Source of the DNA: a virus
Lineage: Duplodnaviria > Heunggongvirae > Uroviricota > Caudoviricetes
IMG/VR virus record: IMGVR_UViG_3300017987_000047
Strand: one strand, 5' to 3'
DNA: 64,000 nt
A model generated the notes under the pieces. The model was not told where the DNA came from, did no database searches, and worked only from the letters and a program-made list of their open reading frames with translations. Made by a program: the position numbers and the translations under genes. Positions within the stretch are counted from its first letter, which is position 1. Each line of letters starts with the position of its first letter. Below, piece by piece: positions 43,947 to 61,645 of the stretch.

Positions 43947-43985
43947 TTTCCCAAACCTTTCCCAAGCCTTTTTCTATCTTTAGAA

Positions 43986-44058
43986 CGCACCCGGTGGGAT
44001 TTGAACCCACGATCAGAGGGTTAGAGCCTCCTGCATTAGGCCACTATGCTACGGATGC
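43986..44058 (-). tRNA. Amber suppressor tRNA (anticodon CUA)
   Basis: GCATCCG/CGGGTGC acceptor; GGAGG-CTCTAAC-CCTCT anticodon arm; GTGGG-TTCAAAT-CCCAC T arm. Confidence 0.85.
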
Positions 44059-44069
44059 ACTTGTTATAA

Positions 44070-46901: not shown

Positions 46902-47255
46902 TTATATATACGGAAAAGTTTTAAAAGAAGTTGTCGTTAAGTCGTCGTAAATGCCATTTTTAAGAGCTTTCTTGGCTAAATCCCTTACAATTTTATGCGC
47001 GGAGGTTAAAAAAGCCCGGATTGGCACTTCTTCATGGTAGTTATTGTTATCCTTAAAATTCCAAGGGAAATCCCAGTCCCATGTGTAATAGGGGGTAGCT
47101 GAATTAATGTACAGTAACCCTTTTTCTAAAGCCGCTTCCCCCTTACGTTGATATGATATCCCCATAATAGGAAACGCAGAAATGGAGGAAGGAACATTCA
47201 TTGGGGAATACTTTATTTTTGGACGGAAAAAAGTTATGGGTGGTTTTTCAGCCAT
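46902..47255 (-). CDS. Hypothetical protein with LLT..R..AK motif
   Basis: FLTSAHKIVRDLAKK near C-terminus. Confidence 0.65.
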   Translation of the reverse strand: MAEKPPITFFRPKIKYSPMNVPSSISAFPIMGISYQRKGEAALEKGLLYINSATPYYTWDWDFPWNFKDNNNYHEEVPIRAFLTSAHKIVRDLAKKALKNGIYDDLTTTSFKTFPYI

Positions 47256-47779
47256 TGTTTTGCATATTTTCTAAGTTCGGGGGCATCGCTGGTTAAAAGC
47301 TTTTCCATTTTGTTGTGCGCCTGGATTAAATAAAACCACCAACAATCCTTTGCAAATTTAAATTCGGGAACCTGAAAAGCTAAACAGTTCGTTGCTTGGT
47401 TTAGCAAAAAAGGAATTTCTGAAATGGGGTCTGGCCAAGGAAAAGCGACATTATCAAAAATTAAACAGGTTGGAGGTTCCATCCCCCGATGGCGGGTTAG
47501 GTCCACAACCCCAGGGAATACATAAAGCGTAGAATTTGATCCCGGTAAAGTAAACCTAGGATTATTATGCCTACCCGATTTATTTATCTCCGGAACCAAT
47601 CCAGTCAAATTTATATCATCATAGCCTGAAAAACAATAGATATTTTCATTTTGTTTTTTAAGATATTTGAGTGCGTATAAGGCGCATGTCGTAGTTGCCC
47701 CTTTTCTCCTTTCCCAAACATAAGCTTGAATAGAGTTTTCTTTTGCTAAAATGTCTTTTTGTTCTTGTCTAAGTATCAT
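47234..47779 (-). CDS. Degenerate terminase/helicase-like P-loop protein with C-terminal motif
   Basis: WERRKGATT, RG..LIFDN; LLTSDAPELRKYAK. Confidence 0.55.
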   Translation of the reverse strand: MILRQEQKDILAKENSIQAYVWERRKGATTTCALYALKYLKKQNENIYCFSGYDDINLTGLVPEINKSGRHNNPRFTLPGSNSTLYVFPGVVDLTRHRGMEPPTCLIFDNVAFPWPDPISEIPFLLNQATNCLAFQVPEFKFAKDCWWFYLIQAHNKMEKLLTSDAPELRKYAKQWLKNHP

Positions 47780-48747
47780 ATTTTATGAGTTTGAGCTGCT
47801 TTATTACAGTAATCAATACAAACATCTAGACACATCTTTTTACAAATTGGGTCTTTTTGGGAGTTATGCCTTTTCAACCACTCGTACCTCTCTTCTCTCA
47901 TGTTTGGGCCAACCTTACCAATTGGGTCTCCCCCTTCCCTCAGGTAGATAATACATGGGAAGTGGTAGTCTCCAGCGATTGCCATATCATCTAAAACTAA
48001 CCAACATTTATCACAATCAGTTTCTCTTAATCCCCGAACATGTCGGACAGCATTAATATTTTTAATCCGATACTTAAGAATTGGGAGCCGGTCAAGAACT
48101 TCTCCCGGCAATTCTGCTAACTTGGATAAAGCCTGGTCGTACTGAGCCGCTGGTATAACCCGCACATCTGAAACCCCCAATGAATCTGCGAATAAGACTG
48201 ATTCTTTACAGTCGTCAATGTTGCTTTCGGTGAAAACCATCCCAACAGTGACATAGGTAATTTTGCTAAGCTCCCGAATTGTACCAACGACCTTATCCCA
48301 AGCACCTGGAATGCCCCCAGCCATTTTATCGCCAATTGAGCAACACCCACCATCCAATGATATGGAAAAGTCATTTGCTCCTGCTTCTACCAACTGGCGG
48401 TAAAGTTCCATAGAAGCAGAGCCGTTTGTGGAAATTGCTATACGCTCAACCCCACCATCTTTACATTGCTTAACTAGCTCAGGTAATCCTTTATAAAGAG
48501 TTGGTTCCCCTCCTGAAAACCTAACATTCTTGAGCTTTTCCTTTGTCCAGTATGAGAGAATCTGGGAAGCTTTTTCAAAAGGAATTGTTCCTTTGATATC
48601 GTCTCTTAGCCCTCGGCAATAAGGACACCGAAAATTACACTTATCAGTAAGAATAAGTTCACACCTCCATAAAGGCGTTTTCGTTGAACAATTGAATGCT
48701 CTTTGGTCGCTTAAGGTATAGAAACCGATATCTTCTAACTTACTCAT
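47776..48747 (-). CDS. Radical SAM protein
   Basis: CNFRCPYC, FSGGEPTL, STNG; C-terminal Cys cluster. Confidence 0.9.
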   Translation of the reverse strand: MSKLEDIGFYTLSDQRAFNCSTKTPLWRCELILTDKCNFRCPYCRGLRDDIKGTIPFEKASQILSYWTKEKLKNVRFSGGEPTLYKGLPELVKQCKDGGVERIAISTNGSASMELYRQLVEAGANDFSISLDGGCCSIGDKMAGGIPGAWDKVVGTIRELSKITYVTVGMVFTESNIDDCKESVLFADSLGVSDVRVIPAAQYDQALSKLAELPGEVLDRLPILKYRIKNINAVRHVRGLRETDCDKCWLVLDDMAIAGDYHFPCIIYLREGGDPIGKVGPNMREERYEWLKRHNSQKDPICKKMCLDVCIDYCNKAAQTHKI

Positions 48748-48748
48748 T

Positions 48749-49300
48749 TTACTTTCCTAGCGCCTTCTTGGCTATTTTCCGTATAGCCTTGTCATCCGAT
48801 GTTAAAAGTTCCCGTGCGGGCCCTAGCTCTTTTGCATTTCTCCTTTCCCAAACGTCCTCGTTTATACGGAGGGTTGTAAAGGCCTTAAAAAAGAACGGGC
48901 TAAGGACATATGCTGTATAGATTTTTGGGTTACCTGTTTTCATATAACAAATCCTAAATAACCCATTATAGAAAAAGCTAATTCCGAAGTCATTAAATGT
49001 GGGGGATGGGTAAGCATAAATTGTGCGATCTTTCCATATTTCCCGAGCCTGAGAAACGGTAACAACAAAATGAATGAAACTAACGCCTAGAATAGGAAAG
49101 GTAGCATTAGATAAAATTTCAAAAATAAGCCCTCCTTCGAAGTTTAACTTTACACAGAGTATACTTAAAATTAAACAAATGAAAAATTCCAACGTGAGTA
49201 TTAAACTTGATACAAGAGGATGAACTCGACTGTATCCTATCTTTCTCAGAAATCTTCGGGAATTAACCCAGGTACTTTTTAGATAGCCGAACAGCTTCAT
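48749..49300 (-). CDS. Membrane protein with C-terminal motif
   Basis: Two hydrophobic segments; LLTSDDKAIRKIAKK. Confidence 0.6.
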   Translation of the reverse strand: MKLFGYLKSTWVNSRRFLRKIGYSRVHPLVSSLILTLEFFICLILSILCVKLNFEGGLIFEILSNATFPILGVSFIHFVVTVSQAREIWKDRTIYAYPSPTFNDFGISFFYNGLFRICYMKTGNPKIYTAYVLSPFFFKAFTTLRINEDVWERRNAKELGPARELLTSDDKAIRKIAKKALGK

Positions 49301-49601
49301 GGCGTGAGGACCCAATCAACTTGTAAAGGTCGTCGGGATGAAATCCCTTAACAAAATCTTTTCCTTTTGAAGAATGGAAAACCTCTGCTTTAACGTGGCA
49401 GTGTTCGCATAAGCTTATTCCATTTTGGGGGATATACCCCCCACTCGGCATTTCATTCCTGTCTACAATATGGTGTGCGTCAAGCTCTTCCTCTGCCTTT
49501 TCGGGAGTGGTTTTAAAACCACAACCGCGACAAGTATATTTGTCTCGTTGAAAAACAGCGGTTCGAAAAGCTCTTCGCAACTCTTTTTTCTTATTGCCCA
49601 T
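49263..49601 (-). CDS. HNH endonuclease
   Basis: RDKYTCRGC, LDAHHI, NGISLCEHCH. Confidence 0.85.
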   Translation of the reverse strand: MGNKKKELRRAFRTAVFQRDKYTCRGCGFKTTPEKAEEELDAHHIVDRNEMPSGGYIPQNGISLCEHCHVKAEVFHSSKGKDFVKGFHPDDLYKLIGSSRHEAVRLSKKYLG

Positions 49602-49824
49602 CCTTTAATCCCTCATCTGCCTTTTTCTCTTGGATCGTCTTTTCTTTATACCATTTTCGAGGGTTCCCGCACATTGAACATGAGCACCTCTTTCCATGGT
49701 TTAATTCCCGGCTAACTTCCCGCTCAAGCATGTCCGGCCGCGCCCCAAACACCCATTGGAGTCTTTTCGAAAGTTTTTGGCGCATCCGTTCTCTTTGGTG
49801 CATTCTGAATGGGGTATCTCTCAT
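49591..49824 (-). CDS. Hypothetical phage protein
   Basis: CSCSMCGNPRK motif. Confidence 0.6.
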   Translation of the reverse strand: MRDTPFRMHQRERMRQKLSKRLQWVFGARPDMLEREVSRELNHGKRCSCSMCGNPRKWYKEKTIQEKKADEGLKDGQ

Positions 49825-49838
49825 TTTTATCTCCTGCT

Positions 49839-50000
49839 TTAATCTAGTTTTAGATCCTTATCGCGCGTAGTCATCCGTTTTGCTGCGCGTATTCGTGTCT
49901 CTACTTCTGGTCGGGGAGGCTTAGTATACGCTTCTTTTATGGCTTTGCTAACTTTTTCTCTAAAATCTCTTAAGCTTTTCATTTTGTCTGCGTCCCGCAT
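49839..50000 (-). CDS. Small hypothetical protein (53 aa)
   Basis: Manual translation MRDADKMKSLRDF...KLD; fills the gap and has an SD. Confidence 0.45.
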   Translation of the reverse strand: MRDADKMKSLRDFREKVSKAIKEAYTKPPRPEVETRIRAAKRMTTRDKDLKLD

Positions 50001-50503
50001 CCTTTCCCCTTTCTCATTTTTAATTTTGCGAATCGTCTTTGCTTAGGTTCCTTCGAGGTTAGTAGGGCTTTTATATTTTCACCTTCAAAGGCTTTATTGA
50101 ACGTAAACCAAATCCAAGGCCGCTCTAAGGAATGGAACCAATTATAAATATTTTTAATTTTTATCTTTTTCCCTTCCACCCATATTTTCGCGGTTGGAAT
50201 ATATAGTATCTCGTTCTTTTCTTGAGGTATCTTTTGAAGATACCCTTTTTCTACTGCTGCCGTAATCAAAGTAGCTAGGTAGGAACAAAGAATGATATCG
50301 TCAACGCTTAAGGCATGGCGACACCCGAGATAAAAACAATAAAAGACGCCCGGAGTCTCGCTTACCATCTCCATGCACCCTTGGAATACCTCAACCGGCG
50401 GCTCGTTAGTCATCCCTCCAGCGAAATTACTACGCAGAATTTGGAGTATTGAATGGGTAGGGGCGCTTCTTAAAAAGCTAATAAACTCTTCAAACCCTTC
50501 CAT
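49979..50503 (-). CDS. Hypothetical protein with C-terminal motif
   Basis: LLTSKEPKQRRFAK. Confidence 0.6.
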   Translation of the reverse strand: MEGFEEFISFLRSAPTHSILQILRSNFAGGMTNEPPVEVFQGCMEMVSETPGVFYCFYLGCRHALSVDDIILCSYLATLITAAVEKGYLQKIPQEKNEILYIPTAKIWVEGKKIKIKNIYNWFHSLERPWIWFTFNKAFEGENIKALLTSKEPKQRRFAKLKMRKGKGCGTQTK

Positions 50504-50538
50504 GGCACTTCCTATTCATGAGACAATCTTCTGGTTAA

Positions 50539-50612
50539 TGGGCGTGGAGGGACTCGAACCCCCGATATCCTGCGCGTAAAGCAGGCGCTCTAGCCAGCTG
50601 AGCCACACGCCC
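50539..50612 (-). tRNA. tRNA-Val(UAC)
   Basis: CCTGC-TTTACGC-GCAGG; A73. Confidence 0.92.
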
Positions 50613-50969
50613 TTATGCATGATTCCAAAACCCCCAGGATACTTTTCCTCCGTTGTGTAAATCATCCGTAATAAATTTTACTTTATCGTAAAGCTCTTCA
50701 AACGTATAGAAATCGCCTGGCCCAGTCCATCTCCCATCTGGGAAAATATATTTATAATACCAGCCACGGCCGTCAACAGAAAAATTTTTCCCGATATGAA
50801 GAATTTCTTTATTTGGGAGCGTTATCTTAAAAAGAACCCTTTCCCAAAAATTAATTGCAAACTTTATGGCCTGGCACGTTGTTGGGAACCCAAGTCCCAA
50901 TATCATTTTCGCACGCTTACGAACTTCTGGATACTTATCCGTAAGAAGTTTTTCAGCCGGAAACTCCAT
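50613..50969 (-). CDS. Hypothetical protein with N-terminal motif
   Basis: LLTDKYPEVRKRAK. Confidence 0.6.
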   Translation of the reverse strand: MEFPAEKLLTDKYPEVRKRAKMILGLGFPTTCQAIKFAINFWERVLFKITLPNKEILHIGKNFSVDGRGWYYKYIFPDGRWTGPGDFYTFEELYDKVKFITDDLHNGGKVSWGFWNHA

Positions 50970-51415
50970 TTCTGCCTCCTGCGGTATTTTTTTGCCATTT
51001 TTCGAAGAAAAGGATCTTCGCTAGTTAAAAGTAAAAGTGTTGGTAGCTTCCTAAAAAGCTTCCCGAATTTTTCGGTGACCAAATCTAGGGTGTCTAGCTC
51101 TTTAGCTCCAAAGATATATTCACTATGGACACCACTTTTATAAGACTCCTCTCTCCGAACTTCTTCCACACGCCCTATAAAATCAACCTTAACAATATAA
51201 GATCTTCGAAACCGAGGGGCCCAGAAAATTTCAAACCATTTATATTTTTCATTGACGACCAAAGTTCCGGAGAAGAAATTCCAATATTTTCCCAGAGTCC
51301 CGAGGCCGAACCTTTTATTTACACGATTCCCTAGAGAATCTGCCTTCACGATTTTCCCATTTTTAGAGTTCTCAAAAACTACTTTAGCCAGGTATCCTAG
51401 CTCGTGGTTTTTCAT
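50903..51415 (-). CDS. Hypothetical protein with motif near C-terminus
   Basis: LLTSEDPFLRKMAKK; start moved to MKNH to avoid tRNA overlap. Confidence 0.6.
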   Translation of the reverse strand: MKNHELGYLAKVVFENSKNGKIVKADSLGNRVNKRFGLGTLGKYWNFFSGTLVVNEKYKWFEIFWAPRFRRSYIVKVDFIGRVEEVRREESYKSGVHSEYIFGAKELDTLDLVTEKFGKLFRKLPTLLLLTSEDPFLRKMAKKYRRRQKWSFRLKNFLRISIQKFVSVRK

Positions 51416-51429
51416 AAGATATTCCTTAG

Positions 51430-51518
51430 AGGAACGGGTGGGACTCGAACCCACAAATCGCATAAACGACTACTGGTTTTCAAAACCAGGCCCCGCACCT
51501 ACTGGGGTCAACCGTTCC
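51430..51518 (-). tRNA. Atypical tRNA-Ser(UGA)
   Basis: CTGGT-TTTGAAA-ACCAG, long variable arm, normal T arm, non-canonical D arm. Confidence 0.75.
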
Positions 51519-51525
51519 TAATTAC

Positions 51526-51777
51526 TTACATCTCTCTTGAAGATCCAAAGTGCTTAATCTCTTCTAAAAGAGTAAATAAATAGAAAGGCAACTTTTCTTT
51601 TTCTTCCTCGCTAAGCTTATCAATTCTCTCTTTTACTGTTTCGGCTTGCATCGCCATCCACCCTGCATGGTCGCCCCTAATGAAGTAACCAGTCCAATCA
51701 TCATTGATTTTGAGAGGGCCTGTTTCAATTCTTTGAGTTCTATCAATTGAATCTGTTTTAATTTCTTGCCGTTCCAT
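51526..51777 (-). CDS. Hypothetical phage protein
   Basis: RIETGP..DDWTGYFIRGD. Confidence 0.6.
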   Translation of the reverse strand: MERQEIKTDSIDRTQRIETGPLKINDDWTGYFIRGDHAGWMAMQAETVKERIDKLSEEEKEKLPFYLFTLLEEIKHFGSSREM

Positions 51778-51779
51778 TT

Positions 51780-52448
51780 TTACCTCAGTTCTAAAAGTGT
51801 CTTTCCAACATTCCGGATTTTCGGGCTCTTGTCTGTTAAAAGTGCTTCTACCTTTGCTTTCACAAGTTTTGAGTTCAATATAAAGTCATAAACAAATTGG
51901 GTAGTTTCATCTTTCACCGTAAGAGTATAAAACGTGCTACCTCCTTTATAAAAGCCACAAATCTTTTTACTATTTTGATTTACAAATAAATAGGCGTTTT
52001 GCTTATCTATAAAAAAATCTGTATACTCGGCTAACTCAGCAATCTTAGGAGGCTTCTCTCGTGTATTAATAGACCAATAAACTAGCTCTATATAAGTAAG
52101 AGTACCATAGTGATCATCCCCTTGAGGAAGATAATCTTCTACCATTCCTGTTTTGTATAGTTTTTGCCGATCCCCCAATAGGGCTAAGACGTAATGTTCG
52201 GAAAATTCTTTACAAAAGGTACGAAAATCTGTTTTCCCACTTAAATAATTCGTTAGTTTTTCTTTCGTTGTCTTTTCACAAGCCCAAGCTTGAAAATAAT
52301 TTTTGTGTCGGAACTCTTCTCGAAGAATCCTAAAAAACCAAACTTCCCCATCTTGAAAAGAAAAGATAGAGAGTGGGCCATCATACCAATCAAGGACGAA
52401 TCCCGTTTCTTCCCCCATTACAACATTCTTTAAGAATTTAACATCCAT
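51780..52448 (-). CDS. Hypothetical protein with C-terminal motif
   Basis: LLTDKSPKIRNVGK. Confidence 0.6.
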   Translation of the reverse strand: MDVKFLKNVVMGEETGFVLDWYDGPLSIFSFQDGEVWFFRILREEFRHKNYFQAWACEKTTKEKLTNYLSGKTDFRTFCKEFSEHYVLALLGDRQKLYKTGMVEDYLPQGDDHYGTLTYIELVYWSINTREKPPKIAELAEYTDFFIDKQNAYLFVNQNSKKICGFYKGGSTFYTLTVKDETTQFVYDFILNSKLVKAKVEALLTDKSPKIRNVGKTLLELR

Positions 52449-52824
52449 TTTTCTTTGCTAAAGCTCGAATTACTTGATTTTCATGGGTTAGTAGATTTTC
52501 AAAAGCGTCCTTGTCTTCTGTTAGGCGTAGGATCTCGGCACGAATTCTCCAAATATTTGTATTGTTCTGCCTACTTAAAAATCCGGCAGCAATCTTTAAT
52601 TCAAGATAAAAGGTATCAACCGTAATATCTAAAAGATTGTCTAGTTTCTGTTTCCAGAATTCGTATTCAAGGGATGCTTTAGTAACAACAACATCACTGG
52701 CGAAGACTAGAAACAGTTTAATAATGTCTTCCCCCGAGGGGAAGTTATCGAAAGTTTTTGTAATTAAGATATCATTTACGAAATCATGTTTTTGGTCCAA
52801 TCGTAAAGTTGTTTTATATTTCAT
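52438..52824 (-). CDS. Hypothetical protein with C-terminal motif
   Basis: LLTHENQVIRALAKK. Confidence 0.6.
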   Translation of the reverse strand: MKYKTTLRLDQKHDFVNDILITKTFDNFPSGEDIIKLFLVFASDVVVTKASLEYEFWKQKLDNLLDITVDTFYLELKIAAGFLSRQNNTNIWRIRAEILRLTEDKDAFENLLTHENQVIRALAKKNGC

Positions 52825-52826
52825 GC

Positions 52827-53138
52827 CTAATTTTTCTTTGGGTTAATTGCAATCACTATCCCATATATATTTTTTGTCCATCCGTTTACGTGACCATGAT
52901 TATTTGAGATCCGAAAACGACCTTTTTCATCAATCGCAGTCACCAGATGTAGCATATAATTTCCGCGGACTTTACAATATACAATCGCTCCAACCTTAAC
53001 AGATTCCAAATCCTTAACGGGAGCAATTACCACAAGATCCTTTGATTCAATCCTACCGGACATGGATTGGCCGGAAGGTCTATATTGCACTTCATTGCCC
53101 TGGAGTAATTGTTCTAATATAAAATTTTTACGTGCCAT
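52827..53138 (-). CDS. S24/S26 peptidase-like protein
   Basis: GQSM, IVYCKVRG..LH. Confidence 0.6.
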   Translation of the reverse strand: MARKNFILEQLLQGNEVQYRPSGQSMSGRIESKDLVVIAPVKDLESVKVGAIVYCKVRGNYMLHLVTAIDEKGRFRISNNHGHVNGWTKNIYGIVIAINPKKN

Positions 53139-53148
53139 CTCAAAAACT

Positions 53149-53433
53149 TTAATCAATCTCTGGGTTGTGTGGAGGGGGTACCGGTTCTGAATACTCTTCA
53201 ACCTCCGCATAGGTACAATTACGTAAAAGACTTTTTTGCCTAAACGGTTTGACGCTAGAGAATGTCCTCGTTTTTGGAGTCTTTAACTTAGACTTTTTAA
53301 TGTACTTTTTAGCCGCTTCTATCGTATCGAAAGTAGCAATCTCTTCCTGTGTTTCGTTGGGAACAAAATCTCCGCCAATTTCATCTTGGAAGTAATCAAT
53401 AGTAGTGCCAATAATGACGTATTTTTTCTTCAT
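53149..53433 (-). CDS. Hypothetical protein
   Basis: Packed in operon. Confidence 0.55.
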   Translation of the reverse strand: MKKKYVIIGTTIDYFQDEIGGDFVPNETQEEIATFDTIEAAKKYIKKSKLKTPKTRTFSSVKPFRQKSLLRNCTYAEVEEYSEPVPPPHNPEID

Positions 53434-53451
53434 GGTGTTTTTAATCCTATT

Positions 53452-53790
53452 CTAACACGTTAAATGTATTGCTAACCAAACCTTTTTCTTCTCAGCTCTT
53501 AAGTTTTTATACTCTTCTAACGCGTCGAAGGATTTAAGTACCTTAACCGCGTAGCCCCGGGATTCGAGATCAGAAATAGTTTCCGGGGGAACTAGCATCT
53601 TTCCTTCCACCCCGGTTCCAATAACTAAAATCGATTTTCCCAAGTCTAATGGGAGATCGTCTGGGATTAAATTATGTCCCGATTCCCTTCTCCAATTTTC
53701 TTGGACTTCTGCATCTGGAAGTATTATGAGATCTTTTTCGTATACCTCATTACCAATCCGCATCACTCCCCATCTAAAAACAATATCCAT
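53452..53790 (-). CDS. Mth938-like (DUF498) protein
   Basis: YEKDLII, SGHNL, LVIGTG, IHLTC. Confidence 0.82.
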   Translation of the reverse strand: MDIVFRWGVMRIGNEVYEKDLIILPDAEVQENWRRESGHNLIPDDLPLDLGKSILVIGTGVEGKMLVPPETISDLESRGYAVKVLKSFDALEEYKNLRAEKKKVWLAIHLTC

Positions 53791-53799
53791 TTTAAGCTC

Positions 53800-54177
53800 C
53801 TAGAGATACAAAACCATTATTCTTGCGCTTCCAGGTAATAATTCAAAACCATAGCTTGCGTAAAAGTTGTATAGGTCCATCTGCCTTTTTGCTTCGTCCG
53901 CACAAGCTTCTACAATTATTGTTTGAACCTCGTGTAAGCATGCTTGATCTATAAACTTTTCTACCAACTCTGTCCCATACCCTAAGCCTTGATAATTTGA
54001 TTCAACATTTATATTTTTCAAAATCGCAACTGGCAATATCTCTACGTCGCTTAGGCTATTAAGACTACCATAGTTTCCGGCGTGAATCTTAATTAACCAG
54101 TTTTGTAAATTTTGTCTTTTGTGATGGACATAACCGCAAATTTGTCCATGTTCATTTTCAATTGTTATATCAGACAT
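53800..54177 (-). CDS. GNAT acetyltransferase
   Basis: V...YQGLGYGTEL, FYASYGF. Confidence 0.8.
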   Translation of the reverse strand: MSDITIENEHGQICGYVHHKRQNLQNWLIKIHAGNYGSLNSLSDVEILPVAILKNINVESNYQGLGYGTELVEKFIDQACLHEVQTIIVEACADEAKRQMDLYNFYASYGFELLPGSARIMVLYL

Positions 54178-54526
54178 TAGAGTTTTCTTTAAAGATTTTT
54201 TTAGCGGCCCTTCTTAAACTAGGGTCTTCATTAGTGAAATACTCTTTTAATCCTGGGAGGTCTTCCTCTATACAGAAGTAATCCCATTGCATTAGAAACT
54301 CTTCTGTACAATCACGATTTCCTCGTAAGGTCGAAAGAACTATTTTTATATACGAACCATACGCCTTCCAACTAATTTCTTGAATCCTAAGACCTTTTTC
54401 TATTTTTAATATTTTCTTACATGCCCAAAATACTAGGTCATTTGAGTCTGGGAGGCTTTGAAAGTAATTGTCATTGTCTTTCCAATGGTGTAAACAAGAT
54501 TGCAATTGTATTTTATAGATCCCCAT
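54170..54526 (-). CDS. Hypothetical protein with C-terminal motif
   Basis: YFTNEDPSLRRAAKK. Confidence 0.6.
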   Translation of the reverse strand: MGIYKIQLQSCLHHWKDNDNYFQSLPDSNDLVFWACKKILKIEKGLRIQEISWKAYGSYIKIVLSTLRGNRDCTEEFLMQWDYFCIEEDLPGLKEYFTNEDPSLRRAAKKIFKENSNV

Positions 54527-55293
54527 TATTCTTTTGCCTTGTATCCAAGATGCTCCCAACTTTCAATAACTTCCAAAGGCAAGCCAACTTCTCTTTGGTC
54601 AAGACGATTTTGTGCGAGATCTAGTGCAAATGCTTCAATACTTTCTTGGGTTGCCTGGATTTTCCACTGAACTTCAGCCAGCTCCTTGTACCCCATGCCT
54701 TCCCAGAAAGATGGTTTCTGTGCCTCGTCTGGCCCAACAAGTTCAATTTTCCCCTCACGGATTTTCAACGCCACTAACGGCTTGGGCATTTCCTCACAAT
54801 GTTCCCGATCCATAAGAACACAGTTGATTGTGAGGAAAGGAAAAGCTTCCAATAAGATTTTCCAGTCCTCAAGGACGGCTTGCACGCTCGGCCACTTCCC
54901 AATATTTTCCCCAAAAAGTATTGTGCCGTCAGGGTGACACCATCCGCAGGGGCCTCCGATATAAGCATTAGAAATCCAGGAATTGTAAATATATTCCGTA
55001 GCAATATGTCCCCAACGTTTGCGCCAGGCAGCTATTGCATCCCAGTATGCATGGAAAGCTTTGAGGCGAGTTTCTTGAGAGTCCCCCGTTTCCCCTCGAA
55101 CTATTGCAGGTTCCTGAGGAATTTGGAGGATTCGTTCGACTGTCGCATTCCATTCCCTATTATTTCCGCCACCCCAAGAAAAGAAGTTATCCGTACGCCG
55201 AATAATTTCCAAAGCCTGTTTCGGCTCTAGTTTCTTCCCCACAATGATGCATTGGGGCCATTTAGGGAGGTTGGTGTTTAGCAAATCGTTCAT
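54526..55293 (-). CDS. Conserved-looking hypothetical phage protein
   Basis: LPKWPQ, EIIRRTD, GWCHPDG, NIGKWPS; start moved off tRNA. Confidence 0.6.
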   Translation of the reverse strand: MNDLLNTNLPKWPQCIIVGKKLEPKQALEIIRRTDNFFSWGGGNNREWNATVERILQIPQEPAIVRGETGDSQETRLKAFHAYWDAIAAWRKRWGHIATEYIYNSWISNAYIGGPCGWCHPDGTILFGENIGKWPSVQAVLEDWKILLEAFPFLTINCVLMDREHCEEMPKPLVALKIREGKIELVGPDEAQKPSFWEGMGYKELAEVQWKIQATQESIEAFALDLAQNRLDQREVGLPLEVIESWEHLGYKAKE

Positions 55294-55358
55294 GTTCTTT
55301 TCTTTCTGTGGGTCCTTTGCGTAAACTGCCATAAACGGAACACTATGGATATATTTTA

Positions 55359-55433
55359 TGGCCCGAGGCGGATTTGAACCGCCGACCCCCATCTTATCAG
55401 GATGATGCTCTGAACCAACTGAGCTATCGGGCC
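55359..55433 (-). tRNA. tRNA-Ile(GAU)
   Basis: TCATC-CTGATAA-GATGG; A73. Confidence 0.92.
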
Positions 55434-55453
55434 TTTATAATTGTGACTATTTA

Positions 55454-55542
55454 AGGAGATGGTGGGATTCGAACCCACGGGGCGGCTTTCACCGCCCACC
55501 AGAATAGCAACCTAGCGCCATAGTCCACTCGGCCACATCTCC
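55454..55542 (-). tRNA. tRNA-Ser(GCU)
   Basis: CTAGG-TTGCTAT-TCTGG; long variable arm; U73. Confidence 0.9.
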
Positions 55543-55583
55543 AAATTTTTTCTTTATCGGCTGGCCACATCTCCTTAAAATAT

Positions 55584-55946
55584 TTATGCTACTCTTATCT
55601 CTCTTGCCTTTTTTGCTACTTTCCTAACTTCTGGGTCTGAGTGGGTTAAGAACTCTTCGTAGTTGTGAAACGAGTATACGTGAATTTCAAAAACCAGGGA
55701 TGAAATATCCAAATCCCTATCGTCGGTATAAGCTAAAACTCTAAGATCTTCTTTTTCTACTCGCTTGAGTTTTACATCAAAGGAAAGGTGATAAATCCCT
55801 TTTTCCCAAGTTGAAATCCCATTTCTTACCGAAATTTCTTCCCAAGCATTCCTTTTGAGATAATCCTTAAAACTCTTAGTTGTGGGATATACCATTGAAA
55901 CATGCCCATTAATGTCCTTTAGGAAAAACTCTGGATACTTATTCAT
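55584..55946 (-). CDS. Hypothetical protein with C-terminal motif; paralog of next gene
   Basis: YLKRNAWEEI..WEKG; FLTHSDPEVRKVAKK. Confidence 0.6.
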   Translation of the reverse strand: MNKYPEFFLKDINGHVSMVYPTTKSFKDYLKRNAWEEISVRNGISTWEKGIYHLSFDVKLKRVEKEDLRVLAYTDDRDLDISSLVFEIHVYSFHNYEEFLTHSDPEVRKVAKKAREIRVA

Positions 55947-55949
55947 CTT

Positions 55950-56333
55950 CTAATCCCGAAGTTTTTTCGCGGCCTTAGCAATTAAACGCAGTTCTGGAAT
56001 CTCGCTTGTAAGATATTGCTCATAATCATCTAATACCACTGCGAAAATATCTTTCCTTAGGTCTTCCCAGGTTTTCTCCTCTATAAACTGTAAAAGCTCT
56101 AGGGTTTCATCCTCTATATAAGTCTCTATAGCAGAGAAATCAAGATAAATTTCCTCTTCCCCTTTTTTCCAAAAAGACCTAAAATCCTTAACTTTAATTT
56201 CTTTCCACCCGATTGTTTTAAGATACCGCTTAAGCTCCAAAGGTTTTGGAAGGCGAACACTGCAAAAAACTTCATCCCCCTCGTAATAATACGTCGTGAT
56301 GAATCCTGGTGTTTCTAGATTAGTTTTTTCCAT
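55950..56333 (-). CDS. Hypothetical protein with C-terminal motif
   Basis: YLKTIGWKEI..WKKG; YLTSEIPELRLIAK. Confidence 0.6.
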   Translation of the reverse strand: MEKTNLETPGFITTYYYEGDEVFCSVRLPKPLELKRYLKTIGWKEIKVKDFRSFWKKGEEEIYLDFSAIETYIEDETLELLQFIEEKTWEDLRKDIFAVVLDDYEQYLTSEIPELRLIAKAAKKLRD

Positions 56334-56343
56334 TTTTTCAACT

Positions 56344-56961
56344 TTATTTTAAGTCGTCAAGAAACTTCTTGATTTTCTTAGCGAAATTCCATATACCTTC
56401 TCTTAACCCCATTACGTACTCACGATCGATCGTCGGTATTTGGAAACATTGTTCATGACAAGCTTTAACTAATTTTCTAGTTTCGTCCCCGTATTTGTTT
56501 TTGAGAAATTCAGGATCTTGTATTGCAAAGTCTTGAATGTTATCCCAACGATCCACCAACTTAATTAGTTTTGCTTCTAGTGGGGCGTTTCTCATTCGCT
56601 CACACATCGCGAACTTACGCCATTTCCTTTTTCCTTTCAAACCTTTATCATTTGTCAACCAAAGTACCTGAGAGAGAATTGTATGAGCATCTTTCCCAAA
56701 AACTTCGAATTCTTCTAGCCGCATTTCGGTATCTTCGATAACATCATGCAGTAGAGCTGCTGCCACCATTTGGTAGTACCGTTTTGTTTCTTTAATCCCA
56801 TTTTCTTTACGATACCTATTTAATTCTTCCCAAACAGAAAGAGCTACTTTCTTGGGATGAGTAAAGTAAGGTTCTCCAGAAAACTTTCTTTTTTGTCCTT
56901 CATGCCAATACTCCCCTAATTGGAGAGCAGTTTCAATCATTTGATGTTCCGGTAATTCCAT
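56344..56961 (-). CDS. HD-domain (p)ppGpp hydrolase-like protein (Mesh1/SAH type)
   Basis: HEGQKRK.SGEPYFTHP, AALLHDVIEDT, IKLVDRWDN. Confidence 0.85.
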   Translation of the reverse strand: MELPEHQMIETALQLGEYWHEGQKRKFSGEPYFTHPKKVALSVWEELNRYRKENGIKETKRYYQMVAAALLHDVIEDTEMRLEEFEVFGKDAHTILSQVLWLTNDKGLKGKRKWRKFAMCERMRNAPLEAKLIKLVDRWDNIQDFAIQDPEFLKNKYGDETRKLVKACHEQCFQIPTIDREYVMGLREGIWNFAKKIKKFLDDLK

Positions 56962-56963
56962 TC

Positions 56964-57158
56964 TTATTTTTCCTCTTCAATAGTGTCACCACAATAGGCA
57001 CAGAAGCATGCTTCAATAGATGCTTTGTCAACCCCCATTATGATTCCATCAACATTATAAGGCGGGTAAATCAAGCCACAAGCTCGATCACGTTGATAAC
57101 TTTCTTTACAGTCATCGCTGCAAAGGTTAACTTTAATTCCGGCCACGGTCGTAATCAT
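56964..57158 (-). CDS. Small Cys-rich hypothetical protein
   Basis: CSDDC..CAYC. Confidence 0.5.
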   Translation of the reverse strand: MITTVAGIKVNLCSDDCKESYQRDRACGLIYPPYNVDGIIMGVDKASIEACFCAYCGDTIEEEK

Positions 57159-57200
57159 TCCTAATCCTTTGTGTTTCTGACCTTAATCGTACCAAACTTA

Positions 57201-57276
57201 TGGGCTGGGAGGGCCTCGAACCCCCAACGCGCAGAACTTCACTCTGCCGCTCTACCAAAAATTGAGCTACCAACCC
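57201..57276 (-). tRNA. tRNA-Phe(GAA)
   Basis: GCAGA-GTGAAGT-TCTGC; A73. Confidence 0.88.
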
Positions 57277-57298
57277 GTACACCTCAAACACTCACATC

Positions 57299-57577
57299 TC
57301 AAATACTCTCTTTCGTCGCTTTTCCAAAAATAGCTTCAAATTCAATTCGTCGCATATGAAACCAAAAAAATTGCTCATCTTCAAGCATTAAAATTGCATA
57401 GGTATTTGGTTTCGGCCTACAAATTAACTTTTCGCCTTCTAGATAACCAACTGTATGGTCTAAAAAATAATTCTTATGTGCTATTAGGTCATCCGTTCTG
57501 CATGAGAAACTCCGAAAGTCGCAAGCCCGCCACCGAGAAAAATCAAAAGAGTCAGCATAGAGTTTAGGAAGATCCAT
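57299..57577 (-). CDS. Hypothetical protein
   Basis: Packed in operon. Confidence 0.55.
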   Translation of the reverse strand: MDLPKLYADSFDFSRWRACDFRSFSCRTDDLIAHKNYFLDHTVGYLEGEKLICRPKPNTYAILMLEDEQFFWFHMRRIEFEAIFGKATKESI

Positions 57578-57578
57578 T

Positions 57579-58208
57579 TTAATCTTTTAGAAATTCCATC
57601 TCCAGGTGAGGGTAGTGTTCTTCAGCATGACAATTTGCACAAAGTAAAACACATTTGTCAGCCTCTTTTAATATTGAATCCCATTTCCGGGTTAAATTTC
57701 GTGCTGATAATGGAAAATTTTTATGTTTCATATGATGGAGAGTAAGACATCTTAAATCCTTTTCTTCACAGATAGAGCACTCTCCCCCTTTCATCCTAAT
57801 TATTTTTTCTCTTCGATTTTTCATTTTTCTCTTCATTAAGAAATTTCTTTGACAAGTTTTCGAACAATACTTTTTCATTGGAACAAAAACAGGGTTTCCA
57901 CAAAATAAACATGTCCCCTCTTTTGGAAAGCGAGAATGTATTTCAAAAGATATATGTTTTTTTGAGTGGCAATTTACACATAATAAAACACATTTTTTAG
58001 CTTCCTTTATAATAATCTCCCATTTTCTAGATGCTATAACATCTACTGAGAGCTTTAATCTTTTTTGAGCTGGGTCTTTATGGTGAAAAACTAGAGCAGC
58101 TAGGTTTTTTTGGTATCCACATGCGGAACATTTATGGCCTTTAAGTTTGACCAGCTTTAATTTCCTATCTATTTTTTTCTGCTTCCTTTGTTCCTCGTAC
58201 TTCGTCAT
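57579..58208 (-). CDS. Tandem-HNH homing endonuclease
   Basis: Two CxxC..L.[FL]HH..KCVLLC.NCH modules. Confidence 0.85.
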   Translation of the reverse strand: MTKYEEQRKQKKIDRKLKLVKLKGHKCSACGYQKNLAALVFHHKDPAQKRLKLSVDVIASRKWEIIIKEAKKCVLLCVNCHSKKHISFEIHSRFPKEGTCLFCGNPVFVPMKKYCSKTCQRNFLMKRKMKNRREKIIRMKGGECSICEEKDLRCLTLHHMKHKNFPLSARNLTRKWDSILKEADKCVLLCANCHAEEHYPHLEMEFLKD

Positions 58209-58257
58209 CTATTTCTTTTTCGCCAAAGCTGCTATAAAAACTGAGCTCTCTACTACA

Positions 58258-58504
58258 CTCGCCCGGTGGGATTCGAACCCACGACCCTCGGATTCGTCAC
58301 ACTATAGCTTTCGCTACCACTTACGTGTTTGTGCGCTGGACTTTCTCTTCGCCTTATCCTTTTTGGACTTAGGCGGCCCCCGTCAAGTCTCTACACCTTC
58401 CTCATTTCTAAGGCTTGGCTCGGGATTGCCATCAGCATTACCTGTTAAGGGTTCCCCGAATTTGAGGGCATTGCACGGTACTCTGGCCACTGAGCTACGG
58501 GCGA
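58258..58504 (-). pseudogene. tRNA (probably Asn) interrupted by a group I intron; anticodon and 5' splice region missing
   Basis: TCGCCCG/CGGGCGA acceptor with G73; D arm at 58479-58497; 3' exon AATCCGA..T arm at 58258-58294. Confidence 0.75.
58295..58478 (-). ncRNA. Group I intron core (IC3-like), lacking P1 and half of P2
   Basis: P AAATTCGGGGAA, Q AATCCCGAGCCAAG, R GTAGAGACT, S AAGAGAAAGTCC, terminal G. Confidence 0.85.
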
Positions 58505-58552
58505 TTACTTTTATACGCTAAATTCTCCTTTCATTCTTAAAACTTGTTTTAA

Positions 58553-58632
58553 TGGGCCGGGCAGGATTTGAACCTGCGTAGGCTAACGCCAACGGGGTTA
58601 GCCGAACGCTCTGCCAATTGAGCTACGGATGA
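58553..58632 (-). pseudogene. Chimeric tRNA: Asn-like 5' half fused to long-variable-arm (Leu-like) 3' half
   Basis: Good D and T arms, but acceptor halves (TCATCCG vs CCGGCCC) and anticodon stem halves do not pair. Confidence 0.7.
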
Positions 58633-58655
58633 TTATTTCTCTTTTCTCGAACTCA

Positions 58656-58747
58656 TGGGAGACGGAGGAATCGAACCCCTACACCTATTCCACTGTTCTA
58701 CTTGGGTTAGGTACCAGATCTACAGTCTGGCGAACAGATCGTCTCCC
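58656..58747 (-). tRNA. D-armless 8/4 tRNA-Tyr(GUA)-like RNA
   Basis: GGGAGACG/CGTCTCCC; CCAGA-CTGTAGA-TCTGG; GGGG-TTCGATT-CCTC; A73. Confidence 0.7.
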
Positions 58748-58765
58748 AAAACCTTTCTAAACGAA

Positions 58766-58836
58766 CTCACCCGCTGAGAATTGAACTCAGATCAACGGTT
58801 TAACAGACCGCCACATTACCATTATGCTACGGGTGA
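58766..58836 (-). tRNA. tRNA-Asn(GUU)
   Basis: TCACCCG/CGGGTGA; GCGGT-CTGTTAA-ACCGT; G73. Confidence 0.92.
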
Positions 58837-58844
58837 CTAATAAC

Positions 58845-59714
58845 TTACTTCTTCCAAACCACTTCCTGAATATCCCTGTTAAAATCGATTCCTTGAAAAT
58901 CGGTAACAATGTTTGCTTGTTCTAATAAGTCTCTCACTTCATCTCGTACTTTCCTAATCTCTTTTGCTACCCGGGGAGATATTTTCTTTATCCTCATAAT
59001 CTGTTCGTCCGTGATTTTCTCAAAAGTCCCGGTTTCTCCTCTCCGCCAGAACTCATCGACCTGTGTCGATTTAATAATCTCTAAAATCTCGCTTATTTCA
59101 TCGAATTGGTCATAAACCATAATATCTTGGGAGGACCACTTTCGAACTTTAATTGTTATGGTAACCCTTTCTCCCTTAATCCTATCCGTTATTACCTTCG
59201 TTTTTGTTAAATGCTTTGCTTCTTTATATAATTTTTTCCGGTATTCCGTAAAAAACTGGACAGGGTTAAACTTTTTATTTCCGTTCAACCATCTTTTCAG
59301 ATAACTTTGAAACTTCTCATGCTCGTAGAGGGTTTCAAATTCGTCCAGCTTCTTAAATTTTTCTTGAACTCTTCCTTTAATAAAGGCTCTAATTTTTTTA
59401 TTTTCGTTTGTGAGAAGCATATTTAACGATGCTTCTTTTAATTCCAGCTCTCCCTTTTTGATTGCTGTTTCGTAATACTGCTTTATATGATGCTCAAACG
59501 TGTAATCAATTGGTCCAGAAAAACGGTGATATACATAACGGTGATAACTATCATTATTTCTGGCACCAGAAGAGGAGATTAAAACAAGAACCCCTGGGGT
59601 GGCATAACAAAAATCAGGGCGACATCCTGCTTCTTTATACCCAAACCGTACCGAGAATGGGTGCTCTTCTTTTTTGCGCCACAACAGTTGAAATAGTTTA
59701 TACTTCTGTACCAT
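58845..59714 (-). CDS. Hypothetical protein with internal motif copy
   Basis: LLTNENKKIRAFIK at apparent domain junction; start moved off tRNA. Confidence 0.6.
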   Translation of the reverse strand: MVQKYKLFQLLWRKKEEHPFSVRFGYKEAGCRPDFCYATPGVLVLISSSGARNNDSYHRYVYHRFSGPIDYTFEHHIKQYYETAIKKGELELKEASLNMLLTNENKKIRAFIKGRVQEKFKKLDEFETLYEHEKFQSYLKRWLNGNKKFNPVQFFTEYRKKLYKEAKHLTKTKVITDRIKGERVTITIKVRKWSSQDIMVYDQFDEISEILEIIKSTQVDEFWRRGETGTFEKITDEQIMRIKKISPRVAKEIRKVRDEVRDLLEQANIVTDFQGIDFNRDIQEVVWKK

Positions 59715-59728
59715 TGTTCCATCTCCTA

Positions 59729-59802
59729 AGTCCCTGGTGGGATTTGAACCCACGGTTTTCTGATCTGCAATCAGACGCCTTTGGCCTCTTGGCTACAGGG
59801 AC
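59729..59802 (-). tRNA. tRNA-Cys(GCA)
   Basis: TCTGA-TTGCAGA-TCAGA; U73. Confidence 0.92.
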
Positions 59803-59804
59803 AG

Positions 59805-60191
59805 TCATAAAAGTTTTAGATGGCCGGTAATAAGATCTACTTTATTACCTCCCGCTGGCCCAACTGCAACAGCTGTTTTAGTAGCTTTCCCTCCAAATTC
59901 GGTTTTGCCTGCATCTTCGATAAGCGAAACTGGAAGTCCTTCATCTTTTGCTTTCTGGTATATTTCAAGGAGTTCTTCTTCGCTCTCTACTCCAACAGCT
60001 ATTTTAGTAAAGGAGTTGGAAACCCAAGAAAGCATTTCTTCATTAAGGTATCCAATTGTAATAGTATCTTTCTCTACCTCTTTAATGCGGTTGAAGAAAA
60101 TGGCTAAGGATGCGTGGGCTCCCTGAGCCACCATTTTTCCTTTGCGCATTTTTAAATCTTTTCGTAATACTATTACTTGTTTACTTTCCAT
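59805..60191 (-). CDS. pth2: Peptidyl-tRNA hydrolase Pth2
   Basis: KQVIVLRKDLKMRKGKMVAQGAHAS, DAGKTEF, VGP, ITGHLKLL. Confidence 0.93.
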   Translation of the reverse strand: MESKQVIVLRKDLKMRKGKMVAQGAHASLAIFFNRIKEVEKDTITIGYLNEEMLSWVSNSFTKIAVGVESEEELLEIYQKAKDEGLPVSLIEDAGKTEFGGKATKTAVAVGPAGGNKVDLITGHLKLL

Positions 60192-60204
60192 TTTTTCTTC
60201 TCAG

Positions 60205-60294
60205 CAGATCGGGTGGGATTCGAACCCACGAAGGTCATTAAAACGCCTTACTGGTCCTCCAAACCAGCGCCATAGTCCACTCGGCCACCGATCT
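60205..60294 (-). tRNA. tRNA-Ser(GGA)
   Basis: CTGGT-TTGGAGG-ACCAG; long variable arm; G73. Confidence 0.9.
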
Positions 60295-60319
60295 GTTATA
60301 GTTAAATTTAGTTAAAGGG

Positions 60320-60515
60320 AACTTTTGTGTGTTCGTTAGCTACTAATTCGGAAACTATTAAAGTAGTAAAAGTAACGACACACGACATTCGAGGTGCTAG
60401 AGTAATAAACCCCGCGTGAGTTGGGTGTGTATGAGCGATTTGAGATATCTGCTCGTGCCGTTACCATTACAAGCTCCAAATTTAGTTAGGATGCCAAACT
60501 TACATTTATTACTGA
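60320..60515 (-). ncRNA. Candidate structured non-coding RNA
   Basis: Gap in the minus-strand gene run containing several complementary stems. Confidence 0.4.
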
Positions 60516-60537
60516 ATAGATTAACGGATTATTACAA

Positions 60538-61014
60538 TTATTTTTCTTTTTCTTTTGTTTGCTCTAAAATGCTGTTGAAACTGCAGTCCCTAAATACGAT
60601 ACTCCCATTCTTAAAAAGGGTATTAAATTGGCATTCTATACCCTCGGAGGCAAAGATAGGGCGTCTCTGGGAAGGGCCTCCTAGGTTAAGGTAACAACTA
60701 CTGATTTCGGCAATGTTAAAATAAAGGAAGCGTGCTTCTCCAAAAAGACTTAGGTCTTCAATCCAGGTAGTGCCAAGGAAAAAAAGAGGCTTATCAATAT
60801 AAATAGGAGTTTTCTCCTTTTTTCCTCTGAAATGGGCATCGTCTAAAAAGACCGTTGTCTTTTCAAACCGCTTCCTATGTGGGGATAGCAAAAAAGGCTC
60901 TGCCACGACTTCAACTTTTTTTGAACTTCCCAAAGCTCCTTTTGCAACCTTTCGGATATAGGGATCGTCGTGGGTGGTTAGGGTTACTAATTTTCTAAAA
61001 AGCGGTTTTTTCAT
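60538..61014 (-). CDS. Hypothetical protein with N-terminal motif
   Basis: LTTHDDPYIRKVAK. Confidence 0.6.
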   Translation of the reverse strand: MKKPLFRKLVTLTTHDDPYIRKVAKGALGSSKKVEVVAEPFLLSPHRKRFEKTTVFLDDAHFRGKKEKTPIYIDKPLFFLGTTWIEDLSLFGEARFLYFNIAEISSCYLNLGGPSQRRPIFASEGIECQFNTLFKNGSIVFRDCSFNSILEQTKEKEK

Positions 61015-61645
61015 TATGGTGAAATTTTTTATAGTAGGCTTCCACTTGTCCGTTCATTTTAGAATGTGCGAAGATTTTACCATGAACGAATAAGTCGTTG
61101 GGAAGACTTTCAATCTCCGTATAAACTATATACAACGCACCCCTAACTCTAAGGGTTTTTGGCAGCTGCTTTATTCTTGTACGGGAAATACAAAGGCTTC
61201 CAGCTATTTCCAAATCATCTGCAAGCTCTTCTAGCCTGGAACCTTCAAGGTTTAGGCTCCCTCCTAGCTTCCTAAGTTTCGGAAACTTTTTTATTGGGGT
61301 ATATTCTAAATTAAGATTGCCCCCAATATAAATTGAATCGTGAATTTTTGATATGTTCGAAAAGCGCGCAAGAAGATGGAACCCTACCGACAGGTACGGG
61401 GGCAACTCCGTAATCTCTAAAACATCAAGTCTTAGCGATTGCTTTACCACTAAAGTTTCGGGTAACTTTTTTATTGGGTTGTTGCGAAGATCAAGACTTC
61501 CTTCAACACATAAACCGTTAGGCAGTTTAGAAACGCCAGTCCCAGAAAGATTCAAAGAATCCTTAATATAAAGTCCCTCTCCAGCAAGCCATCGCTTTGC
61601 TAGGTTTCGAATCTTTGGGTCTTTATGAGTTGCTAAAGTATGCAT
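60995..61645 (-). CDS. Leucine-rich-repeat protein with N-terminal motif
   Basis: LATHKDPKIRNLAK, then LxLxxxxIxxLPxxLxVxG repeats. Confidence 0.75.
   Translation of the reverse strand: MHTLATHKDPKIRNLAKRWLAGEGLYIKDSLNLSGTGVSKLPNGLCVEGSLDLRNNPIKKLPETLVVKQSLRLDVLEITELPPYLSVGFHLLARFSNISKIHDSIYIGGNLNLEYTPIKKFPKLRKLGGSLNLEGSRLEELADDLEIAGSLCISRTRIKQLPKTLRVRGALYIVYTEIESLPNDLFVHGKIFAHSKMNGQVEAYYKKFHHNEKTAF

Follow-up and report, generated by a model that had tools for sequence, protein, structure and literature searches.

The DNA considered here is a stretch of 64,000 nucleotides (the window, at its full length) from an uncultured 335-kb phage, and the subject is a short peptide module, the tag, that is shared by 14 genes (the carriers) lying between 46.9 and 61.6 kb. 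This tagged stretch is a run of small minus-strand genes with HNH endonuclease genes between them, and eight of the 11 tRNA genes in the window are interspersed within it. The first 46.9 kb of the window hold glycosyltransferase, sugar-nucleotide, and tail-fibre-like genes and zero copies of the tag. DNA near-identical to that of the phage is present in sediment and seawater sequencing runs from at least three studies, with no RNA run among those listed. The radical SAM protein encoded at 47776-48747 has an exact match on a 335,479-bp ENA metagenome contig, hereafter the record, on which window positions correspond to record positions minus 10,968; proteins of the window are also encoded on a 384,251-bp contig. 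The nearest deposited genomes belong to two huge phages, both uncultured and 735 kb and 485 kb in size, whose versions of the radical SAM protein are 53%–58% identical to that of the window.

A preliminary description of this DNA, made by eye, reported 14 copies of the motif, and a regular expression written from its list recovers exactly 14, every one on the minus strand, with no further match in the 64 kb. The coordinates quoted at that time are the low ends of the carrier open reading frames (ORFs) and not the motif positions. Both are given below, the motif comprising 14 residues and the tag core 17 alignment columns.

c01: 46902..47255, minus strand, 117 residues, orphan; tag core 46962-47012, 19 residues from the C terminus; motif 46971-47012
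c02: 47234..47779, minus strand, 181 residues, terminase-ATPase-like fold; C-terminal tag core 47249-47299; motif 47258-47299
c03: 48749..49315, minus strand, 188 residues, two hydrophobic spans; C-terminal tag core 48758-48808; motif 48767-48808
c04: 49979..50503, minus strand, 174 residues, orphan; C-terminal tag core 50015-50065; motif 50024-50065
c05: 50613..50969, minus strand, 118 residues, orphan; N-terminal tag core 50898-50948; motif 50907-50948
c06: 50903..51418, minus strand, about 171 residues, a longer ORF entering tRNA-Ser; tag core 50981-51031; motif 50990-51031
c07: 51780..52448, minus strand, 222 residues; C-terminal tag core 51792-51842; motif 51801-51842
c08: 52438..52824, minus strand, 128 residues, orphan; tag core 52444-52494, one residue before the stop; motif 52453-52494
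c09: 54170..54559, minus strand, 129 residues, orphan; C-terminal tag core 54191-54241; motif 54200-54241
c10: 55584..55946, minus strand, 120 residues, paralogue of c11; tag core 55602-55652; motif 55611-55652
c11: 55950..56333, minus strand, 127 residues, paralogue of c10; C-terminal tag core 55965-56015; motif 55974-56015
c12: 58845..59714, minus strand, about 289 residues, a longer ORF entering tRNA-Cys; internal tag core 59367-59417 (residues 100-116); motif 59376-59417
c13: 60538..61014, minus strand, 158 residues, orphan; N-terminal tag core 60931-60981; motif 60940-60981
c14: 60995..61645, minus strand, 216 residues, leucine-rich repeat (LRR) solenoid following the tag; N-terminal tag core 61586-61636; motif 61595-61636

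The features first ascribed to the motif hold across all 14 copies: the threonine, the arginine at +7, and the lysine at +11 are invariant, the spacing is ungapped, and each carrier has a single copy, placed C-terminally in ten (within 28 residues of the C terminus), N-terminally in three (within 12 residues of the N terminus), and internally in one. Conservation at the protein level, likewise proposed earlier, is evident from the information content of codon positions one, two, and three (0.87, 1.27, and 0.49 bits, respectively) and from the use of AGG, AGA, CGG, CGA, and CGT for the invariant arginine and of several codon families for leucine. With the third position the least informative and arginine codons so varied, selection must act on the peptide and not on a DNA site, and a DNA-level element was accordingly rejected. 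Residue-shuffled window ORFs gave 0.2 matches to the regular expression; as this expression was post hoc, a regularised 17-column matrix was built as well. Under leave-one-out scoring, the 14 copies reach 19.0–36.0 bits, while shuffled ORFs yield 0.18 matches of 13 bits or more per shuffle and the best six-frame score in 785 kb taken from the two huge relatives (accessions LR745208 and LR756501) is 12.6 bits. The motif is thus far from equally frequent in shuffled or related sequence, and the tag is real.

The family extends well beyond the window. A further 68 kb of the same contig (record 266–334 kb), reached via one small lone-tag profile match located there, contains 54 copies, all on the coding strand: 44 C-terminal, eight N-terminal, and two internal. 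Together, 132 kb of the genome hold 68 copies, of which 54 (79%) are C-terminal, 11 N-terminal, and three internal; between 0 and 30 variable residues (median 5) follow the tag, and most carriers are proteins of 100–130 residues with the tag at the very end. Among the 122 called genes of record 266–334 kb, the tag occurs in none of the 12 with a firm Pfam family and in 48 of the 107 (45%) without one (Fisher p = 0.0015), and two of the three with faint Pfam matches (faint LRR) are tagged. The window agrees with this, and with the preliminary description, in that its radical SAM, HNH, GNAT, DUF498, HD, and PTH2-like genes all lack the tag—the last of these being what we take to be PTH2-like from reading the sequence by eye, with no family match. 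The tag is therefore restricted to orphans and excluded from known enzymes. All-against-all BLAST and phmmer comparison of 62 tag-masked proteins found only seven paralogue pairs, in one of which the tag of one member has decayed. The genome-wide total is probably well above 100.

Outside this phage the tag is scarce. Neither the 485-kb phage nor the first 300 kb of the 735-kb phage contains it, and degenerate DNA patterns gave 2 and 13 single matches in IMG/VR, which is chance level and leaves the tag essentially absent there. The same approach in JGI metagenomes returned 102 single matches, mostly to unrelated families, with only one contig (L091/L114) truly multi-tag. Peptide deformylase N termini (I-L-T-x-P-D-P-x-L-R-x-x-A-K; loci L051, L059-L061, L072, and others) match the regular expression by chance, as does an internal segment of a widespread family of 380–450-residue proteins (loci L054-L058 and others), and metagenome scans with such expressions consequently need a multi-copy criterion. 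L091/L114 carries three copies on small proteins, scoring 25.7–26.8 bits, and a 12.4-kb Logan contig (L162) carries five, also on small proteins and in N-terminal, internal, and C-terminal positions; beyond the tag, L162 and the window have no gene in common. The tag is thus rare but not confined to one genome. The 663-residue tail-fibre-like protein at L091:2851-4839 shares 29% identity over 187 residues with a 771-residue protein of the window (7917-10232), which has no Pfam family and whose language-model and structure neighbours are T4 gp9/gp10-like and tail-spike proteins.

What unites the carriers, apart from the tag, is very little. None of the 14 belongs to a Pfam or PHROG family, none matches a HEAT or ARM Pfam family at E up to 0.1 (the gathering score is not reached), and the related phage DNA (785 kb) contains no relative of any of them; c07 is the sole member of its cluster among 5.8 billion protein clusters. 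All-against-all comparison of the tag-masked carriers leaves a single paralogous pair, c10/c11 (E 5e-6). Residues 1–161 of c02 match the ATPase domain of the terminase large subunit (ESM Atlas, template-modelling score 0.69), and the tag begins where the match ends; with its degenerate Walker A motif, no nuclease domain, and a tag at the end of a stand-alone chain, c02 may be a decoy or regulator of packaging. c03 has hydrophobic spans at about residues 31–85 and basic termini, and by the positive-inside rule its C-terminal tag would be cytoplasmic. In the model of c14, the body is an LRR solenoid (predicted local distance difference test score, pLDDT, 76–90) preceded by a less confident N-terminal tag helix (50–62); the repeats are of the 20-residue type, with IpaH/SspH1-type LRR domains as the nearest solved structures. 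An AF2 model of c10, of low confidence (mean pLDDT 51, from an input including one paralogue), places a short helix, a turn, and a 15-residue helix across the tag.

These folds bear on whether the carriers could all descend from one ancient and very divergent paralogue family in which the tag is the best-kept core helix. Several small paralogue pairs and the similar size of many carriers are what such a family would leave, yet the bodies are as different as an LRR solenoid, a membrane protein with two transmembrane spans, and a terminase-ATPase-like domain, and the tag sits at opposite ends of them. The diversity of carriers noted in the preliminary description is therefore borne out, and the alternative that it set against itself, namely full-length homologues of a single family, fails; we regard common descent of this kind as the least probable of the explanations considered. 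The observations instead support a portable module.

One junction between carriers has a feature of its own. The genes of c06 and c05 overlap by 67 nucleotides (window 50903-51040), such that the 25-residue basic tail of c06, which follows its C-terminal tag, overlaps the start of N-terminally tagged c05. The c06 tag includes a run of seven adenines (GCA AAA AAA TAC), at which a –1 slip would fuse the two proteins with their tags 28 residues apart. An AGGAGG sequence lies 5 nucleotides before the ATG of c05, and two independent assemblies agree exactly at the junction. A required programmed frameshift was rejected given this Shine–Dalgarno sequence, and because of both observations a c06-c05 fusion is optional at most. 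Similar junctions, with a C-tagged gene followed by an N-tagged gene, occur at L163:2319-2445 and L163:10283-10418.

The relationship of the tag to known folds was approached with a profile of the tag region built from the 14 copies and run with HMMER, without the word filter, against 1.84 billion representative proteins. Of the 23 matches at E up to 0.001, 12 were training proteins (out of 14), four were further small proteins bearing one or two copies, and seven were multi-copy proteins. Six of these seven were scanned against Pfam, and all six proved to be HEAT_2 or HEAT; P0013 (HEAT_2 at 2e-124 and HEAT_PBS at 3e-65), P0014, P0018, and P0020 consist of regular tandem units of 31–34 residues. 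The seventh, P0023, is a different repeat of 64 residues. An alignment of 44 tags is gapless, with threonine and arginine invariant and leucine and lysine at 90% or more, and its comparison with 18 array units by hhalign gave a probability of 95.9% (E 6.3e-9). The consensus of the HEAT_2/HEAT_PBS unit—a helix ending in L-L, a turn with Asp(-Pro), and V/I-R-x-x-A-x-x-A-L-G—is found in the tag, whereas the tandem arrays of those families are not found in the carriers. Column by column, the D-P of the tag corresponds to the Asp-Pro that opens the second HEAT helix, I/V-R to V-R, and A...A-L-G to the helix end, while the tag threonine closes the first helix, a position at which threonine is also found in 13 of the 18 array units. 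The preliminary description was right to see a HEAT-like element in lone terminal copies; its distinction of the tag from HEAT units by threonine in place of aspartate arose from a misalignment by one column and does not stand.

By these profile comparisons, the tag is a single, solitary unit of the HEAT_2/PBS type, homologous to HEAT units and forming a helical hairpin of roughly 20–21 residues. A profile search of the PDB, in which a designed repeat protein came first, alphaRep matches were weak, and U1-C zinc-finger matches were due to chance, is too weak to give a family name. A full HEAT unit has about 30–34 residues with a first helix of 10–12; in the tag, conservation starts only 4–5 residues upstream of L-L-T (proline at –4, glutamate at –2), and the first helix spans four residues in the low-confidence AF2 model. 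Specific to the tag are its solitary and terminal placement, an apparently shortened first helix, the invariant threonine and arginine, and an invariant lysine where arrays show alanine or threonine.

A single hairpin cannot form a solenoid, and it is unlikely that 14 different folds would each evolve a surface to match it. For these reasons, the most plausible account, albeit one falling somewhat short of probable, is that the tag is a common protein–protein docking handle with a shared partner. The retention of invariant residues that HEAT arrays do not need also favours docking, as does the one usable model (c14), in which the tag is predicted to be a loosely attached part. The tag comprises a short helix that starts with proline and terminates in L-L-T, then a turn, often H/S-x-D-P, and finally a basic amphipathic helix, I-R-x-x-A-K-x-x-L. 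Onto the ends of a very large set of fast-evolving, unrelated accessory proteins the phage has attached this lone HEAT/ARM-type unit, and the hydrophobic face together with the invariant threonine, arginine, and lysine would pack onto one cytoplasmic partner of phage or host origin. One possible mode is "repeat complementation", in which the tag completes or extends a helical-repeat surface, while the variable body of the carrier—an LRR, for example—would supply the individual activity or target. Judging by the c14 model, tagged LRR proteins would fit the logic of an adaptor, that is, a variable binder with a constant handle. Here we infer binding itself, the single partner, and the site of action.

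Several points weigh against this docking account. No HEAT/ARM array or other obvious hub candidate appears in the Pfam tables for about 89 kb of the record (48.7–69.7 and 266–334 kb), with window 1–37.8 kb sampled by five large ORFs only and record 215–266 and 1–11 kb lying outside the search; the 132 kb of genome sequence read likewise yielded no receptor candidate. The carrier models are of low or moderate confidence, so the tag may pack onto its own carrier. The invariance of the three key residues in the untrained region (T in 30 of 30, R in 30 of 30, and K in 28 of 30 copies, with arrays varying at T) is partly forced by the scoring threshold. Finally, all assemblies of the phage are almost the same, differing by one mismatch in 12.8 kb, and its protein clusters consist of start-site variants only, a divergence too low for a ratio of non-synonymous to synonymous substitutions from orthologues.

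Intramolecular packing is the essence of a rival explanation, which we consider unlikely though deserving of weight: the tag would be a self-contained stabilising cap, with no shared partner, that helps small new proteins to fold, stay soluble, or escape host proteases, and it would be conserved as the sole part of each protein unable to drift. The restriction of the tag to orphans, most of them of 100–130 residues with the tag at the very end, agrees with such a cap; an amphipathic hairpin could pack on any small domain, and the failure to find a receptor in the regions covered is as expected. A cap is harder to reconcile with a tag that works at the N terminus, at the C terminus, and internally, and on bodies as unlike as an LRR solenoid, a membrane protein, and an ATPase fold, or with invariant threonine, arginine, and lysine, which are surface-type residues not required in HEAT arrays. 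It also sits poorly with the c14 model, where the tag is the least confident and most loosely attached part.

A broader version of the docking account envisages phage-wide addressing, in which accessory proteins otherwise unrelated to one another, well over 60 and perhaps 150 or more, would each dock through a lone HEAT unit into a single hub, by repeat complementation. This version is the more doubtful of the two, and nothing of the kind is known to us from a bacterial virus. Candidates for the hub are a helical-repeat protein that is incomplete, a host machine, or an enzyme of the protease or transglutaminase type that would act on the invariant lysine or threonine. A gene resembling the transglutaminase core and the CEP76 peptidase (papain-like) is located in the middle of the stretch where tagged genes are most closely packed (L163:11565-12131, at about 306.9 kb of the contig), and L162 has a gene of the ClpP family; either product is a possible enzyme acting on the tag, and both are offered as leads only.

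The same two genes enter into a reading of the tag as a degron or adaptor handle, recognised by a protease adaptor for the scheduled destruction of tagged proteins or of the targets bound by their variable domains. Terminal placement at either end and the resemblance of the LRR-plus-tag architecture to substrate adaptors are consistent with this, as are the presence of a ClpP-family protease on L162, the second tag-bearing contig, and of the papain-like gene inside the tag-rich region. Yet the tags read by ClpX and ClpA, such as ssrA, are short, unstructured, and extreme-terminal, whereas the present tag is helical in models and is followed by its variable tail, and phage ClpP-like genes often encode head-maturation proteases. 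Scheduled destruction therefore seems improbable to us.

The role preferred in the preliminary description was sorting, either of cargo to the capsid for injection or of proteins to a phage-made compartment, and it amounts to a special case of docking; modification of the threonine was put forward there as another possible role. A terminal element portable across unrelated cargo is what sorting would call for; on the other hand, 68 carriers in 132 kb make a very large cargo set, one of them (c03) is an integral membrane protein, and the N-terminal, cleaved signal of the T4 type is at odds with a tag that is C-terminal in 79% of copies. Sorting is accordingly also improbable, if marginally less so than destruction. 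Less credible still is direct tag–tag binding, by which tags of different carriers would stack head to tail and so form a helical solenoid of mixed origin, drawing the carriers into a cluster. A HEAT unit does have two stacking faces, conserved arginine and aspartate residues bridge neighbouring units in arrays, and a few proteins carry two copies of the tag; set against this, there is no positive evidence for stacking, and the two copies in P0015 are 98 residues apart, which is not a repeat spacing. Prediction of a complex of four tag-region copies scored 0.01 and carries no weight either way.

Some further features of the window deserve mention. Within the tagged run, an untagged 127-residue protein (52827-53210) with no PHROG match contains a G-Q-S-M-S-G segment that, by eye, is like the catalytic-serine motif of LexA/signal-peptidase-like (S24/S26) proteases. 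At 43985-44059, adjoining a tRNA-Val, ARAGORN identifies a TAG-suppressor tRNA (anticodon CTA, labelled Pyl); the ORFs of the window are open under table 11, and recoding is not evident despite this tRNA. A long block of sugar-modification genes (13.6–33.9 kb) includes a 1636-residue protein (13644-18554) made up of two family-2 glycosyltransferase domains, TPR repeats, a methyltransferase, and a family-1 glycosyltransferase. At 29935-32625, an intein with a LAGLIDADG endonuclease domain splits a UDP-glucose/GDP-mannose dehydrogenase gene (Pfam Intein_splicing 6e-14, LAGLIDADG_3 1e-8).

Huge phages are rich in orphan genes that offer no functional handle, and in one region of this genome a single module is shared by 45% of the unannotated genes. 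The 14 tagged genes in 15 kb of the window, and dozens of unknowns with them, are thereby reduced to one question, namely what the tag binds to. A hub, should one exist, would reveal a new principle by which phage accessory proteomes are organised, akin to the expansions of F-box and PRANC adaptors in eukaryotes and their viruses, and would be a natural case of a repeat unit serving as a lone portable interaction peptide, which would be of relevance to protein engineering. Were the addressing system true, new genes would gain access to common machinery by acquiring a 21-residue end-piece. If there is no hub, the tag still marks how a phage stabilises or generates new small proteins.

Of known systems, the closest in sequence are the HEAT_2, PBS-lyase HEAT-like, and HEAT_EZ families (PF13646, PF03130, and PF13513) and ARM (PF00514), with which the tag shares the helix-turn-helix unit and the column pattern of L-L, D-P turn, V/I-R, A, and A-L-G. 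Those families form arrays of three or more tandem units, and in PBS-type HEAT repeats the conserved arginine and aspartate bridge adjacent units; the tag, by contrast, occurs as one unit per protein, its first helix appears cut to about 4–6 conserved residues, its threonine is invariant, and an invariant lysine occupies the alanine/threonine column of the arrays. No equivalent of a lone terminal HEAT unit on many phage orphans was found described in the literature. The T4 capsid targeting sequence resembles the tag in being a short portable terminal peptide on unrelated cargo. That signal is N-terminal, about 10 residues long, and removed by the prohead protease, whereas the tag is mostly C-terminal, folded, about 21 residues long, and present on many more proteins, a membrane protein among them.

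In architecture, the nearest parallels are the F-box/LRR (FBXL) and poxvirus ankyrin-PRANC proteins, in which a short constant helical box at one end is joined to a variable protein-binding domain, with many such proteins per genome; the N-terminal tag and LRR of c14 follow the same plan. There is no sequence relation between these boxes and the tag, most tag carriers are not repeat-domain binders, and hub binding is ascribed to the tag by analogy; we know of no Skp1/SCF partner in bacteria. A physical precedent for the proposed mode of binding comes from designed armadillo-repeat fragment complementation and from donor-strand complementation in pili, in both of which an incomplete repeat or fold is completed by a piece from another chain, although no incomplete-array receptor was found in the phage regions covered. 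The fold unit itself is ordinary; what seems to be new, no description of it having been found, is that a phage places it singly at the ends of so large a share of its orphan proteins, a use in line with the shared docking and targeting boxes already known.

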